Part shown: positions 28,160 through 47,213 of the stretch, piece after piece
Numbering within the stretch: the stretch's first letter is position 1
Layout: each line of letters begins with the position of its first letter
NCBI GenBank assembly: GCA_027623815.1
Contig: JAQBUV010000002.1
Coordinates: 16,633 to 80,632, forward strand
Reading direction: 5' to 3'
DNA: 64,000 bases
From: Chloroflexota bacterium
GTDB taxonomy: Bacteria > Chloroflexota > Dehalococcoidia > Lucifugimonadales > UBA3495
Translations under genes and position numbers: made by a program
Notes under the pieces: model-generated
Databases searched by the model: none
Told to the model about the DNA's origin: nothing
What the model saw: the letters and a program-made list of their open reading frames with translations, nothing else

Positions 28160-28200
28160 CTAACAATTCTGCCTTAGTAGTATGCGCTGTTTCCGACGCT

Positions 28201-28271
28201 ACCCCCTCACCCCCGGCCCCTCTCCCTCAGGGAGAGGGGTAGCCGAGCGGAGCAAGGTCGAGGTGAGGGCC
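28201..28271. repeat. Intergenic nested-hairpin repeat, copy B (CCCTCACCCC family)
   Basis: The inner perfect 10-bp hairpin is CCCCTCTCCC-TCA-GGGAGAGGGG and the outer arms are CCCTCACC (28204-11) / GGTGAGGG (28262-69). The 3' core is related to 2091-2126, and the CCCTCACCCC arm also occurs at 33517-33527. Confidence 0.6.
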
Positions 28272-28311
28272 ATCCATGCAATTAGAAGTCCCGGACTTTC
28301 GACAGTCAAGC

Positions 28312-35007: not shown

Positions 35008-35043
35008 GAAATTTGCTGGCTATCGGGGGCATATTGGGATCAT

Positions 35044-35072
35044 GGGCGGGTTTTGAACCCGCCCTTATTTTT
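35044..35072 (+). terminator. Rho-independent terminator after the phosphoglucomutase gene
   Basis: GGGCGGGTT-TTG-AACCCGCCC (9-bp perfect stem) is followed by TTATTTTT. Confidence 0.85.
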
Positions 35073-35212
35073 AGCGGCTCTGCGCGGTTCTTACATCGTT
35101 CTTTAATACCTGGCATCCAAAGTAATGTAAACAAATGCGCTTATCGTTAGCCATGAATCCTGGGTGGGCGTAGTTTAAGATCAAGAGAGATTAACATTCG
35201 GGAGCGCATAGG

Positions 35213-41349: not shown

Positions 41350-42156
41350 TTAGGAATGGACGGTTAGAATTTTTGGACCGTCTTCGGTGATGGCAATAGT
41401 GTGCTCAAAGTGAGCGGAAAGACTACCGTCTTCAGTCACGACCGTCCAATGGTCGTCAAGAATACGAGTATGCCAATCCCCAATGTTCAACATTGGCTCA
41501 ATGGCGATGCACATGCCAAGACGGAGTAACTGTCCTTTGCCTGCCTGCCCGTAATTGGGAACTTGCGGGTCTTCGTGCAGAAAGCGTCCAACCCCATGCC
41601 CAACAAACTCACGTACGACACCGTACCCGTGGGCCTCGGCGTAAGTTTGCACCGCCGCGCCAATGTCCCCAATCCGATTGCCTGGTTGGGCTGCCTTGAT
41701 TCCTTCTTCCAGACTTATCCTGGTCGCGTCCATCAAATCGGTGGCTGCTTGGGTGACCTCACCCACCCCCACCGAAACGGCAGCGTCGCCGATAAAGCCG
41801 TCTATGGTGGCGCCCACATCCATCTTAATTATATCGCCTTCGCGCAAAATGCGCTTGCCTGGTATCCCATGAACGATCTCTTCGTTCACCGAGGCGCAGA
41901 TGCTGGCTGGGAAGCCCCGATACCCCTTAAAGGTGGGCTTGGCCCCGCAACGGGTAATCTCTTTATAGGCGATATTGTCCAGGTCCCGAGTGGTCATCCC
42001 TGGTTCGACCGAGCACTTCAGCAAGGTCAATGCTGAACCGACAATTGCGCCAGCCTTGGCCATTGCCTCCAGTTCTTGGGGCGACTTGATGGTTACGCCA
42101 CCGTTATATGTAGACGGCGAGTTTGAAGCCGTCTTGGTACTGCGAGTTCGATTCAC
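41350..42156 (-). CDS. map: Type I methionine aminopeptidase
   Basis: 'FKGYRGFPASICASVNEEIVHGIP', 'DVGATIDGFIGDAA', 'VREFVGHGVG' and 'AIEPML'. The N-terminal ~20 aa may be extension, so the start is uncertain. Confidence 0.9.
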   Translation of the reverse strand: MNRTRSTKTASNSPSTYNGGVTIKSPQELEAMAKAGAIVGSALTLLKCSVEPGMTTRDLDNIAYKEITRCGAKPTFKGYRGFPASICASVNEEIVHGIPGKRILREGDIIKMDVGATIDGFIGDAAVSVGVGEVTQAATDLMDATRISLEEGIKAAQPGNRIGDIGAAVQTYAEAHGYGVVREFVGHGVGRFLHEDPQVPNYGQAGKGQLLRLGMCIAIEPMLNIGDWHTRILDDHWTVVTEDGSLSAHFEHTIAITEDGPKILTVHS

Positions 42157-42203
42157 CTGGTTATTCTACTCCTGTTTGGCGCGGTTGGGAACCTGGCATC
42201 AGT

Positions 42204-42452
42204 TTACATGAGGTCGTCAATAACGACCCCAATCCCACCAGAGTCCCTTATTTTCTGTAGCTCCACCTCCTGCAATTTGGTTGGCTTTTTGCAGGGCTGC
42301 TTGAACTCAATCCCCATCATCCGGCCACGGTAGCAGCAGAGGATGTCTGGAGTCCCTCGTTGTTGCATCGCAGACCCCACCACCTTGAACACATAAGCGC
42401 CGGACTCTCTCAGGTACTCAATAGCTCTGCGCTGTAAAGTTGATTCTCTCAT
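42204..42452 (-). CDS. VRR-NUC domain nuclease (PD-(D/E)xK superfamily), 82 aa
   Basis: 'ESGAYVFKVVG...RGTPDILCCYRGRMMGIEFKQ' gives G-x-PD ... E-x-K spacing typical of stand-alone VRR-NUC proteins. Its start overlaps the upstream stop (ATGA). Confidence 0.7.
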   Translation of the reverse strand: MRESTLQRRAIEYLRESGAYVFKVVGSAMQQRGTPDILCCYRGRMMGIEFKQPCKKPTKLQEVELQKIRDSGGIGVVIDDLM

Positions 42453-42730
42453 TTGCTAGTGATGTTATCGCAGTGCCATTGCGATATCCGCCATGAATCC
42501 GCCTTCAGCATATCAGGAATAAATGTCTTAGCCAAGCAGAGCATATAACTCTTCTCTGCAATGCTCTTGGATTGATTGATCTGAGTGTCTCCGTGATTGA
42601 CTCCGAAAAACCATCCGATCCCAATCCCGATTACCAACAACAGTATGTGCGGCCAATTACTTTGGTGACGATGCCAGAAATTACTCATGATTCTCTCACC
42701 AGTGCCACCACTTTTTTTCGGCTTCGGCAA
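42449..42730 (-). CDS. Small single-pass membrane protein, unknown function
   Basis: 93-aa ORF (or 79 aa from the ATG at 42688). It has one TM helix 'WPHILLLVIGIGIGWFFGV' and is translationally coupled to the VRR-NUC gene. Confidence 0.5.
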   Translation of the reverse strand: MPKPKKSGGTGERIMSNFWHRHQSNWPHILLLVIGIGIGWFFGVNHGDTQINQSKSIAEKSYMLCLAKTFIPDMLKADSWRISQWHCDNITSK

Positions 42731-42744
42731 ACTATCTCTATACT

Positions 42745-43416
42745 TCAGTTTACATCAACCGGCAACTGGCCCAATGCTGAGAGCACCCGATGGTTTACAT
42801 CCTCAACACTGCCAATGCCAGGTACTTCAATCAGCAAACCCCGCTGGCGATAATAGTCGAGGAGCGGGAATGTTTCGGTCTGATAAACCTGGAGCCGCTG
42901 CTCTACCGCCTCCGGGCGGTCATCGTCCCGTTGATAGAGTTCTCCCCCACAATTGGAGCATTTGCCGTCGCCGCCCTGGGTCTCAGACAAAGTATGCGGC
43001 GCCTGACACTCCCGGCAAGTGTATCGTCCGCCCAGCCGATGAAGCAGTTCCGCTTCATCTACGTTGATGAAAACCACCCAGTCCAACCTACGAGAGCGTT
43101 CTGCCAGTGTATTATCCAGCGCCACCGCTTGATCGACCGTTCTGGGAAAGCCGTCAAGTAGGAACCCCTCCTGGGTGGAAACCCCCAATACTTTGTCCAG
43201 GATAATGCCAATGGTGATTTCATCTGGCACCAACAGACCTTGATGGATGTACGAGGCGGCCTGCTGGCCTAACCCTGTCCGCTCCCTCAAATGGTACCGG
43301 AACAAGTCTCCTGAGCTGATGTGGGGAACTTTAAGTTGTTCTTTTAGAAGTTGTGCCTGAGTCCCTTTACCCGCTCCGGGAGGGCCCATCAGCACCAGTC
43401 GTAATGATGAATTCAC
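42745..43416 (-). CDS. adk: Adenylate kinase (zinc-lid type)
   Basis: The P-loop is 'LMGPPGAGKGTQAQLL' and the lid is 'CRECQAPH...CSNCGGELYQRDDD'. Confidence 0.95.
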   Translation of the reverse strand: MNSSLRLVLMGPPGAGKGTQAQLLKEQLKVPHISSGDLFRYHLRERTGLGQQAASYIHQGLLVPDEITIGIILDKVLGVSTQEGFLLDGFPRTVDQAVALDNTLAERSRRLDWVVFINVDEAELLHRLGGRYTCRECQAPHTLSETQGGDGKCSNCGGELYQRDDDRPEAVEQRLQVYQTETFPLLDYYRQRGLLIEVPGIGSVEDVNHRVLSALGQLPVDVN

Positions 43417-43419
43417 TGA

Positions 43420-44748
43420 CTATCTTAAGAAACCTTCATAATTTCGCATTAACAATTGGGCCTCTAACTGCCGCAGGGTGTCCAGACCCACGCCCACCAT
43501 AATCAGCAAGCTGGTGCTGCTCAGTGAGACCGCCTGCACGTTGGTTATCAGCGAGGCCAAATAGGGCACGATTGCCACGAATCCCAGGAACAGCGCCCCA
43601 CCCATTGTGATACGGACGATTACCCGGTTCAAATAGTCTTGGGTAGGTTTGCCGGGTCTTATGCCAAGAACAAAGCCGCCATTGCGCTGCAAGTTTTCGG
43701 CCAGTTGTTGTTGATTGAACACCACCAGGGTATAAAAGAAGGTGAAGATCACCACCAGTATGAACACTAGCACCCAATAGAACGGCGCGGTTGGGGTGAA
43801 TAAGTCAGCGAAGAAAGTGGCTATGTTTCCCACTATGCCGCTGCTGGTGGCGAAGTAAGTCGCCATCGCGCCGGGTAATATCACAATTGAGAAGGCAAAT
43901 ATCAGAGGAATCATTCCCGCTGAGTTAATTCGCAAAGGGATATAAGTAGACCCGCTCTGGCGATACATCCTGCCGCTTCGGAATACGCTCCGCCCGTACT
44001 GCACTGGTATTCGCCGGGCCGCTTCATTGAACAATACGATCAACGCGATAATCACAACTCCGATGATTACAAAGAAGCCAATGCCCAGCAGGTTGTCGCG
44101 GTCGACAAACCCCTGAGTTACCAGGGATGGGAATCCTACCACGATACCGGCGAAAATAATTAGTGATATTCCGTTTCCAATGCCGCGCTCGGTGATGAGT
44201 TCTCCCAACCAGACCAGGAACATAGTACCGGCGGTCATGGAGACGATCGCCGCCAGGGTGGGCAGCAGCGCGGTTCCAGTAAAACCTACTTCGGTCAATA
44301 CGTTGCTCTGCTGAAGCAGCACCAATTGCGCTACCGCCTGAGAAATTGCGATTGGCACCGTCAGCCAGTGAACCATGCGGTTCATTTTGACCCGACCGCC
44401 TTCGCCTTCACGGGACAGGGCCTGGAGTTGAGGAATTACTGGGGTTAGCAACTGAATGACGATTGAGGCGGTGATATAAGGAAATACGCCCAAGGCGACG
44501 ATGCTCATTCTGCTGAGCGCGCCACCGCTGAAGAGATCCAGAAATCCGAGCAGTTGATTGCCCCGGAACAGGTTATCCAGTTGCACCTGGTCAATCCCAG
44601 GGATAGGGATGTGGGCGACAAACCGGTACAGAACCAGAATACCCAGGGTAAATAGAATTTTGGCACGCAGGTCTGGCAGGCTGAAGGCGTCAATCGCCGC
44701 CTGGATCAGACTGGGCCATCGGGTCCCCTGAGCTTCGGTAGAAACCAT
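43420..44748 (-). CDS. secY: Preprotein translocase subunit SecY
   Basis: 442 aa with 10 TM segments. It has 'FSGGALSRMSIVALGVFPYITASIVIQLL' and 'GGFVLGIRPGKPT'. Confidence 0.95.
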   Translation of the reverse strand: MVSTEAQGTRWPSLIQAAIDAFSLPDLRAKILFTLGILVLYRFVAHIPIPGIDQVQLDNLFRGNQLLGFLDLFSGGALSRMSIVALGVFPYITASIVIQLLTPVIPQLQALSREGEGGRVKMNRMVHWLTVPIAISQAVAQLVLLQQSNVLTEVGFTGTALLPTLAAIVSMTAGTMFLVWLGELITERGIGNGISLIIFAGIVVGFPSLVTQGFVDRDNLLGIGFFVIIGVVIIALIVLFNEAARRIPVQYGRSVFRSGRMYRQSGSTYIPLRINSAGMIPLIFAFSIVILPGAMATYFATSSGIVGNIATFFADLFTPTAPFYWVLVFILVVIFTFFYTLVVFNQQQLAENLQRNGGFVLGIRPGKPTQDYLNRVIVRITMGGALFLGFVAIVPYLASLITNVQAVSLSSTSLLIMVGVGLDTLRQLEAQLLMRNYEGFLR

Positions 44749-45198: not shown

Positions 45199-45294
45199 AT
45201 TACTTGGTGCCTCTAGAAAATATTTTAATGGTTTACGCTGCGCGGCTCTAGGGGTTTGAGGTGCTGAAATTTTACGTGTTTAAAAAGCTTAGGA

Positions 45295-45323
45295 AATCTA
45301 AATTATTTCAGTGTCCTGCTCAA
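45295..45323 (-). promoter_or_regulatory. Speculative internal promoter in the rpmD-rplO spacer
   Basis: On the minus strand: TTGAGC (45323-45318), a 17-nt spacer, then TAGATT (45300-45295), within an AT-rich spacer. Confidence 0.25.
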
Positions 45324-45464
45324 TCTAACTGGCGGAAAATAAGGCCGCTGTGTTAAGGGCAGATAATCGTCGCTGGATCAATCACGGACACGGGCTTGGC
45401 CCACTTTCCTATCATAAGGGCTAGGGCTAGCTTCTGCGTTTCGACTTGACCCGGTCGTCGACTA

Positions 45465-45653
45465 CTATGCCTCAGCGATTTCCTCTACCGACAGCAGGTG
45501 CTGAACTTTGTTTACCATACCCCTTATCGTCGGAGTATCACCGTGAGTTACAGTATGGTTTAGCCGCTTTAGTCCCAAGGCTAGAATGACTTTTTCCTGG
45601 TTTTGAGGCCGACCAATACAGCTTTTGGTCCATGTAATCTTGAGTTGAGCCAT
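45465..45653 (-). CDS. rpmD: 50S ribosomal protein L30 (uL30)
   Basis: 'MAQLKITWTKSCIGRPQNQEKVILALGLKRLNHTVTHGDTPTIRGMVNKVQHLL'. The ATG at 45653 has AAGGTG 5 nt upstream. Confidence 0.9.
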   Translation of the reverse strand: MAQLKITWTKSCIGRPQNQEKVILALGLKRLNHTVTHGDTPTIRGMVNKVQHLLSVEEIAEA

Positions 45654-46590: not shown

Positions 46591-46622
46591 TCCGGTATGT
46601 ACCTTATCTTCTTAAACTAATA

Positions 46623-47213
46623 CTAAGCTTTGCGGGCCGCAGACTTGCCGGGCTTGTAGCGGAGCACTTCGCCTGCGTACCTGATACCCTTTTCTTTATA
46701 GACATTGGGCCGGCGCACCTTCCTGATCTGAGCCGCCTGAGCCCCTACCTTTTGTTTGTCAATGCCACTAACGTGAACCCGGTTGTTGCCTTCAACACGC
46801 AGGGTCACTCCCTCTAAAGGCGGAATCCCAACGGTATGGCTGTAACCTACGCTGAGAGTTATCCCATCTCCGGTCTGTTGTACCCGATATCCCACACCCA
46901 TCAACTCCATCGTCTTGTTGTAACCGTCGGTGACTCCGGTGATAGCGTTAGCAATCAGGCTGCGAGTCAGTCCGTGCAAAGAACGGTGGAATTTGCGGTC
47001 GGACATCCTTTCCACCAGGATCTGACCATCCGCGAGCCGGACTTTAACTTCAGGATGATAGGTTTGGGTTAACGTGCCCTTCGGCCCTTTTACCGTCACG
47101 CCGTTCCAGAGGATCTGAACCTCAACCCCTGACGGAACTGGTATCGGTTTTCGGCCCACTCTGGATTGGGTGCGTTCGGCTAAATCTTCCCGTACGAATG
47201 CGCTACCAGACAT
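46623..47213 (-). CDS. rplF: 50S ribosomal protein L6 (uL6)
   Basis: 'SRVGRKPIPVPSGVEV' and 'GVGYRV'. I chose the ATG at 47213 because the ORF-track start at 47234 is a TTG with no spaced RBS. The start remains uncertain. Confidence 0.85.
   Translation of the reverse strand: MSGSAFVREDLAERTQSRVGRKPIPVPSGVEVQILWNGVTVKGPKGTLTQTYHPEVKVRLADGQILVERMSDRKFHRSLHGLTRSLIANAITGVTDGYNKTMELMGVGYRVQQTGDGITLSVGYSHTVGIPPLEGVTLRVEGNNRVHVSGIDKQKVGAQAAQIRKVRRPNVYKEKGIRYAGEVLRYKPGKSAARKA

Follow-up and report, generated by a model that had tools for sequence, protein, structure and literature searches.

A 535-nt insert of phage origin with an 11-nt target duplication between adk and map in the ribosomal gene cluster of a Chloroflexota bacterium

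Gene order at the adk-map junction

The window, by which we mean the whole 64,000-nt stretch of DNA analysed here, comes from a metagenome-assembled genome (MAG) of 2.76 Mb in 154 contigs that is 94% complete. Its minus strand carries, in this order, secY (43420-44748), adk (42745-43416), an ORF of 93 or 79 aa, an ORF of 82 aa, map (41350-42156), infA, rpmJ and rpsM, the placement of rpmJ being taken from the gene calls of matching assemblies. Both adk (Pfam ADK, E 2.1e-48) and map (Pfam Peptidase_M24, E 2e-49) are intact. The first of the two ORFs between them encodes a putative membrane protein and extends over 42449-42730 with a TTG start (93 aa) or over 42449-42688 with an ATG start (79 aa), and the second, which encodes a predicted nuclease of 82 aa, lies at 42204-42452 on the same strand and overlaps the first by ATGA. 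A sequence-only reading of this DNA had reported two extra same-strand genes at this position, and the ORFs are as it described them. Its figures are also exact, namely gaps of 14 and 47 nt flanking the pair with the TTG start (the ATG start widens the first gap to 56 nt) and G+C counts of 53 in 120 nt at 42481-42600 against 36 in 60 nt in adk at 42901-42960. Over 42375-42750 the G+C fraction is 0.44-0.46, compared with about 0.54 nearby, and the insert defined below has 48.0% G+C against 56.0% for the genome. As that reading had also noted, no terminator-like site was found within the insert, and the region 41900-43000 gave no match to Rfam families. Co-transcription with the ribosomal genes is plausible.

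A promoter-like element, TTCCCA-17-TAGAAT, is located at 42163-42191 on the minus strand, just upstream of the map GTG, and is untouched by the insertion. The motif GGTTYCCAAG...GAGTAGAATA upstream of map is kept in at least eight genomes of the family. Since the insert lies upstream of this conserved promoter-like motif, the site is likely a boundary between transcription units and not the seamless interior of an operon. Neither gene is broken, because the additional DNA follows the stop codon of adk and precedes the promoter-like element of map. The site marks an insertion-tolerant position in the ribosomal cluster.

Target duplication and strain-level polymorphism

The two ORFs are carried on an insert of 535 nt, bordered by an exact 11-nt direct repeat of the host word ATGTAAACTGA with a spacing of 546 nt. 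The left copy (42745-42755, minus strand) contains the last adk codons and the TGA stop, and the right copy (42199-42209, minus strand) gives the nuclease ORF its last codon, ATG, and its stop, TAA. In the 2.76-Mb genome this word occurs only in the two border copies. Contigs from other runs (L055-L059), with Adk 98-99% identical to that of the window, have an empty site, ...GTTGATGTAAACTGATGCCAGGTTCCC..., with a single copy of the 11-mer. Against the window, the flanks of these empty-site strains have 99.3% and 98.4% identity, and their two alignments share an overlap of exactly 11 nt. The site is also empty in a genome of the same genus (G001), which aligns without a gap and has one copy of the 11-mer. 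A contig from the same genus can be aligned collinearly with 23.5 kb of the window at 82-86% identity; its homology breaks at 42755 and resumes at 42202.

The gene adk was found in 23 relatives, the same-genus genome included, and in each of them map comes directly after it at a spacing of roughly 50-200 nt. The nuclease was found in none of 40 relatives, a set made up of one genome sharing the genus, 23 sharing the family and 16 sharing the order, and any member of the nuclease family is present in only 3 of the 401 genomes of the class. On the other side of the comparison, four more assemblies carry the filled allele (0-4 mismatches in 6249 nt), and this shows that the insert did not arise in assembly; the assemblies with the insert are close to clonal and could rest on shared source data or a single project. 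Every assembly with an identical Adk carries the insert. Strains only about 1% apart differ in whether they carry the insert, which suggests that the insertion is very recent.

The insert has no terminal inverted repeats, recombinase or transposase, and no second copy of it was found in the genome. Transposases of the DDE_Tnp_1 type are present elsewhere in the genome, and the insert has no ends matching them. A Ku gene (PF02735) was not found in the 94%-complete genome, which weakens end joining as a route of capture. To our knowledge, no known mechanism yields an 11-nt duplication around a fragment that lacks both terminal inverted repeats and a recombinase. A literature search for target duplications around captured phage DNA returned eukaryotic cases only.

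The flanks themselves carry a possible trace of recombination. In map, the tract 42040-41440 has 33 mismatches in 600 nt (5.5%) against the empty-site strains, and 5 of the 33 change an amino acid. On the adk side there are 10 mismatches in the first 521 nt, and farther out the divergence is 0.3-0.6%. This cluster of mismatches around the insert looks like a homologous-recombination tract spanning the site, and one of the two alleles, filled or empty, may derive from a lineage some 5% away. The pattern suggests transfer of either the insert or the empty state between lineages by recombination, and the original event may therefore predate the 1% divergence of the flanks. Compared with the outgroup G001, the divergent map tract gave a split of 15:12:6, which does not indicate the direction of import.

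Phage origin of both genes and a shortened nuclease

The 82-aa ORF matched the Pfam model Hjc (PF01870; E 9.9e-7) with 29.1 bits against a cut-off of 21.1 bits, and this was the sole Pfam model above its curated cut-off. Its score with Pfam VRR_NUC (PF08774) was 13.5 bits (E 0.074), below the cut-off of 23.8 bits, and with the NCBIfam Hjc equivalog NF040854 it was 15 bits against a cut-off of 70 bits. The ORF also matched phrog_93, annotated 'endonuclease', with E 1.7e-20. When a profile of the ten-member family was compared with solved structures, 4QBO (1.2e-5) and 4QBN (2e-4) came ahead of Hjc structures (about 6e-3). An AlphaFold2 model of the protein (pLDDT 87) superposed best on 4QBN (TM 0.68), followed by Hjc and RecU resolvases. 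The residues E3, D36, E49 and K51 are invariant across the ten family members, and PD (P35-D36) and ExK (E49-x-K51) align with those of 4QBO and 4QBN. Profile and model together indicate that the 82-aa ORF is a small PD-(D/E)xK nuclease of the VRR-Nuc/Hjc resolvase kind, with a predicted Holliday-junction-resolvase fold.

The end of the protein differs from that of all its relatives. The modelled elements are H5-16, E20-22, E37-41, E44-50, H59-70 and E74-78, with an extra short helix, H28-31, in the linker between strands 1 and 2. The model stops after strand 4, and the final helix of 17 of 17 relatives, of 4QBN and of 4QBO is missing. All 17 relatives extend C-terminally by 6-17 residues (consensus x-M-x-D/E-L/V-x-x-L-L...), while the protein of the window ends in ...VIDDLM*, with ATG TAA coming from the duplicated host word. 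DNA homology to phage nuclease genes spans 42457-42213 and ends 4 nt short of the 11-mer. Because the stop codon is supplied by the duplicated host 11-mer, the last helix of the VRR-Nuc/Hjc fold is missing. As read from these alignments, the nuclease gene is shortened at its 3' end at the junction, and the predicted protein retains its catalytic residues and lacks a structural helix.

Stand-alone VRR-Nuc proteins of bacteria and phages have been described, including stNUC (4QBO), saNUC (4QBN) and psNUC (4QBL) (Pennell et al. 2014, PMC4103454). The solved members are dimers that cut four-way junctions, with activity known for psNUC and stNUC (PMC4103454). The nuclease of the window resembles them in its size class of about 90 aa, in the E...PD...ExK pattern, in an E-x3-Q signature on helix 1 and in having phage-borne relatives located in DNA replication and recombination modules. 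Unlike them, it stands alone in a chromosome and not in a phage, and it falls below the Pfam VRR_NUC cut-off. It shares its fold and the catalytic D, E and K with archaeal Hjc (PF01870; 1HH1, 4TKD, 2WCZ), whereas Hjc has 120-145 aa against 82 aa here. In the alignment, the invariant Q7 of this nuclease family stands opposite the first acidic residue of Hjc, as in VRR-Nuc. The predicted nuclease adds a shortened member to the phage VRR-Nuc/Hjc resolvase kind, and no new category is needed.

Close relatives of the nuclease form ten clusters among 5.8 billion proteins, at 50-75% identity. JGI metagenomes gave 12 loci, 7 of which have 56-72% identity, and an Anaerolineales MAG gave one locus, whose nuclease is 59% identical; a scan of the nuclease alignment against viral contigs gave no relative. 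More distant copies, with the annotations resolvase, VRR-Nuc or endonuclease, occur in 460 phage records of GenBank. Wherever context was available, the gene lies in a phage-like replication module, and it is never found between adk and map in relatives. Its neighbours are a UvrD-type helicase one to a few genes upstream, a SNF2 helicase, an N6/N4 methyltransferase, ThyX, DUF5131, GtrA/GtrB-like genes and small overlapping ORFs. Its place near the helicase gene is conserved in phages, as for a core gene. The contig L027, with a 72%-identical nuclease, carries genes for a PHROG primase-polymerase, a helicase and a thymidylate synthase as well as GtrB-like conversion genes.

The membrane ORF is a predicted single-pass protein with the hydrophobic stretch ILLLVIGIGIGWFFGV. 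It matched nothing in Pfam or NCBIfam, and a word-based search returned only itself. An exhaustive HMMER search over 1.84 billion representatives gave a single relative, P0012, of 89 aa and 59% identity (E 1.7e-20). In the alignment P0012 begins opposite the ATG at 42688, indicating that the 79-aa form is the real one. In the comparison with P0012, two Cys in the C-terminal part are invariant, and the C-terminus of the window's protein is about 10 residues shorter. The AlphaFold2 model, built from two sequences, reached pLDDT 67.6 and was too poor for a fold search. P0012 is encoded on a 1.7-kb contig (L040) whose other genes have 60-87% protein identity to their syntenic counterparts on L027. 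Since L040 is syntenic with the nuclease-bearing L027, both ORFs come from one phage family. On L040 the membrane gene is located between an HTH gene and the helicase gene, a slot that holds a different 29-aa ORF on L027. A scan of the membrane-protein alignment against metagenome contigs gave no match, L040 included. A homologue of the membrane gene was next to a homologue of the nuclease gene in 0 of 19 phage-like loci, and the pair as a unit was found at no second site in any collection searched. Neither other DNA of this phage family nor spacer-like matches to it were found in the host genome.

Homology assigns both genes a foreign, phage origin; the sequence-only reading had called their composition foreign and small VRR-NUC genes typically phage- or plasmid-borne. 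Its label VRR-NUC holds in so far as the protein is of the PD-(D/E)xK VRR-Nuc/Hjc kind with 4QBO and 4QBN as best matches, but not at the level of the Pfam VRR_NUC cut-off; the missing C-terminal helix was beyond what it could see. The PD...ExK residues, whose conservation it had put forward as a check, are invariant in the ten members. The comparison of adk-map junctions that it had suggested gave 23 of 23 relatives without the insert and revealed the 11-nt target duplication. An ancient lineage-specific operon member, the possibility it had set against its own view, is contradicted by the absence of the nuclease from the 40 relatives and its family's scarcity in the class (3 of 401 genomes).

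Both ORFs are intact in the window and in three of the four other assemblies. In the fourth, GCA_002816715.1 (L036), codon 45 of the membrane ORF is changed from GAG to TAG, one of only 2 differences in 6249 nt. This TAG allele could be an assembly error. An SD-like GGTGA precedes the membrane gene. The left end of the insert comprises 56 nt (42689-42744, minus strand), in which a frame is open for 19 codons from the border, SIEIVCRSRKKVVALVRES*, and its TGA overlaps the ATG of the membrane gene. This frame may be the tail of a cut upstream phage gene. Its RSRK is matched in position by an RSRK at the C-terminal end of the L040 gene upstream of P0012, a similarity that is not significant (14% of shuffles reach the score).

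Origin and meaning of the insert

We consider it reasonably probable that the insert is a 535-nt fragment of phage DNA captured very recently at the stop codon of adk, now carried along as a passenger and probably transcribed by read-through. A fragment from a phage of this bacterial group would have inserted at the adk stop, with the 11-nt host stretch ATGTAAACTGA duplicated at its borders. It would contain, tentatively, the last ~19 codons of one phage gene, then the membrane gene and the first 81 codons of the nuclease gene, whose frame would enter the duplicated host 11-mer and so gain codon 82 and a stop. The route we prefer is a staggered break, its nicks about one helical turn apart over the last 11 nt of adk, that was filled in after a linear fragment had joined. 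The insert would probably be transcribed passively as the 3' tail of the secY-adk message. We take the insert to be a passenger, neutral or slightly deleterious, whose decay has begun, and not to serve the host. Because the assemblies that carry it are almost clonal, they offer no real test of selection. As an observation that points away from capture followed by decay, all four catalytic residues are kept, and the ATGA coupling together with the SD-like GGTGA would allow expression.

Three known kinds of element were compared with the insert and rejected. Insertion sequences (IS) and MITEs with target duplications of 9-12 bp exist, for example in the IS4 family, and the short duplication found here is of comparable length; the insert has no terminal inverted repeats, transposase or second copy, and it consists of two phage genes with cut ends. 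A free-standing homing endonuclease gene does not fit a site that is filled only in this strain group and that has a target duplication, although a divergent tract does exist. As for a known anti-phage defence or toxin-antitoxin system, PADLOC defence models assigned neither protein to a family at E up to 0.1, and the membrane protein has no Pfam or NCBIfam match.

Rare insertions of foreign genes into the otherwise conserved ribosomal gene cluster have been reported, with mechanisms using very short or no homology discussed as rare routes (Brandis 2021, PMC8046335). The insert described here is like those cases in placing foreign genes within this cluster. Those cases, in Gammaproteobacteria and Bacilli, are old, fixed events whose junctions have been lost, whereas here the difference is at strain level and both junctions and the empty site are preserved. 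The locus offers a rare natural view of the entry of foreign DNA into the most conserved bacterial gene cluster, with filled site, empty site and exact junctions at hand. An 11-nt duplication that bears no mobile-element signature also has a bearing on how phage DNA fragments become fixed in chromosomes. For the biology of the host the meaning is minor; a new system is unsupported, and the nuclease comes from a well-known phage family.

An unlikely alternative to fragment capture is a temperate-phage remnant, in which a Campbell-type crossover at an 11-nt identity with the 3' end of adk was followed by a deletion that left 535 nt by the right attachment site. The exact 11-nt border repeats do look like attL and attR cores, related contigs carry the GtrB-like conversion genes typical of temperate phages, and the closest homologue, P0002, also ends in ...ATG TAA, so that ATGTAA could be native phage sequence. 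This history needs an att core in or at the end of the nuclease gene and a nuclease natively of 82 aa, but the C-terminal helix is present in 17 of 17 relatives and in the solved VRR-Nuc proteins. In relatives, moreover, the nuclease gene is directly followed by overlapping small genes and not by an integrase or att region. The 535 nt hold neither a recombinase nor an integrase remnant, and the genome has no other DNA of this phage family.

It is similarly unlikely that the insert is a working acquired cassette, in which read-through from the ribosomal operon yields the membrane protein, alone or together with the short nuclease, to the benefit of the host (for example by superinfection exclusion against related phages) or of the cassette itself (by addiction). 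This is close to the domesticated or selfish cassette with a role in addiction, defence or repair that had been offered on first reading, a suggestion that the present results do not bear out. Open frames, intact catalytic residues, translational coupling and the lack of a terminator are in keeping with function, as are the conservation of the membrane protein in a tiny family (59% identity, two invariant Cys) and the presence of the insert in all assemblies with identical Adk. A working cassette is harder to reconcile with polymorphism among strains whose flanks are about 99% identical, with a nonsense allele in the membrane ORF, with a nuclease that is short of a structural helix and with the lack of any PADLOC match. 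The two genes, in addition, are neighbours in no sampled phage and the pair occurs nowhere else, while the fragment seems to break off within a gene at either end, as a random piece would.

The insert also contains an exact inner 11-nt repeat, TGAGAGAATCA, that bounds the membrane ORF to the base. Copy A (42688-42698, minus strand) has as its last base the A of the membrane gene ATG; copy B (42441-42451, minus strand) begins with the three bases of the TGA stop of that gene and covers the last two bases of nuclease codon 1 and codons 2-4. Deletion of one 247-nt unit would give GTG AGA GAA TCA ACT..., a GTG-started nuclease gene like that of L030, and this arithmetic would suggest a nested insertion with the same stagger. 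A direct repeat of at least 11 nt, however, occurs in 10.5% of random 535-nt windows of the genome and in 2.8% of shuffles, and the former figure makes the inner repeat statistically weak. We regard as very unlikely that the two 11-nt duplications are footprints of an undescribed cut-and-fill process pasting gene-sized phage DNA that has no terminal inverted repeats. If there were such a process, an integrase or transposase acting on non-cognate DNA would be an example, and the unit would be a minimal mobile gene cassette that also spreads between strains by recombination in the flanks.

More improbable still is the specific history in which an undescribed mechanism, with 11-nt duplications as its trace, moved a minimal mobile gene cassette and acted twice, first bringing the membrane gene into the 5' end of the nuclease gene and then the pair into the chromosome. 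Its appeal lies in the two exact direct repeats, the outer one being a proven target duplication, in the inner repeat that bounds the membrane ORF and whose 247-nt removal restores an L030-like nuclease, and in the raised divergence around the insert, as after co-conversion. The frequency of such repeats by chance speaks against it, as do the missing terminal inverted repeats and recombinase and the lack of a second site for the unit in any collection searched; on L040 the membrane gene sits in its variable slot with no clear flanking repeats.

An assembly chimera, in which phage reads were misjoined into the ribosomal contig, can practically be set aside even for a MAG of 154 contigs, as the same junctions recur in five assemblies that came from different pipelines (two from NCBI, one each from ENA and Logan, and the window) and an exact 11-nt host duplication is a biological signature and not that of an assembler.

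Divergence around the insert and along the syntenic stretch

When the window was compared with close relatives that lack the insert (the empty-site strains), background divergence was 0.3–0.6%, whereas it was higher beside the insert. Within map, 33 mismatches in 600 nt were found at 41440-42040, most of them synonymous, and the 3' part of adk (42760-43266) held 10 mismatches in 521 nt. This raised divergence in map and the 3' part of adk looks like a recombination tract across the insertion site. Polarisation of the tract by the outgroup gave 15:12:6, which did not resolve its direction.

Farther along the adk side, the non-coding spacer between rpmD and rplO (45226-45468) is ~241 nt long in the window compared with ~121 nt in the same-genus genome G001. 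Since this spacer could not be aligned with that of G001 and contains 4 of the 21 adk-side mismatches to the close empty-site strains, it is a fast-evolving non-coding stretch. The remaining indels were determined over a 23.5-kb syntenic stretch between the window and contig C426 of G001. Near 46615 (46607-46623), G001 is longer by ~170 nt, and at 35009-35212 and 28169-28305 the window is longer by ~100 nt each; all of these other indels are well short of the 546-nt insert.

A promoter-like motif upstream of map

A promoter-like motif lies upstream of map on the minus strand (42163-42191). In a comparison that took in the loci L004-L013 downstream of adk, the motif is kept before map in at least eight genomes of the family. 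Its sequence, GGTTYCCAAG-N-GAGTAGAATA, comprises a -35 element TTCCCA and a -10 element TAGAAT separated by a 17-nt spacer. Because the motif is conserved and its -10 element ends only 6 nt before the GTG of map, map may have its own promoter and its message may be leaderless or near-leaderless. The motif also includes AGGAG, 12 nt from the map start, a distance judged too great for a usual Shine-Dalgarno site.

Repeats and a nonsense allele in the membrane-protein gene

The ORF for the 79-aa membrane protein (42449-42688) is flanked by an exact 11-nt direct repeat, TGAGAGAATCA, at 42688-42698 (copy A) and 42441-42451 (copy B). The final base of copy A is the A of the ORF's ATG, while copy B opens with its TGA. 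This inner repeat is equal in length to the outer target duplication, and could reflect either a nested insertion or chance; 2.8% of the shuffled sequences held such a direct repeat, as did 10.5% of the windows taken from the genome. In another assembly of the same strain (GCA_002816715.1, MUCJ01000033.1), codon 45 of the ORF is changed from GAG to TAG (position 2897, window 42556), which is one of only two differences across 6249 nt and is seen in this one assembly.

In L040, a phage-like contig carrying a homologue of the membrane-protein gene, the gene ends with ATG AAT AAA TAA and is followed at once by the helicase start ATG AAT AGG (1410-1440), so that the 7-nt word ATGAATA is directly repeated where the two genes meet. 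In L040 and the window alike, the 3' end of the membrane-protein gene looks partly copied from the start of the next gene.

The phage-like contigs

L040 and six other metagenome contigs (L027, L028, L031, L033, L041 and L043) are one family of phage-like elements, with a G+C content of 49–63%. They have in common a module of a primase-polymerase, small ORFs, a UvrD-type helicase and a VRR-Nuc/Hjc nuclease; in L027 the module also includes ThyX. L027 and L028 have a divergent arm as well, which holds genes for TMEM260-like and GtrA/GtrB-like glycosyltransferases. Small-gene content varies in the slot between the HTH gene and the helicase, which is occupied by the membrane-protein gene in L040 and by a 29-aa Cys-rich ORF in L027.
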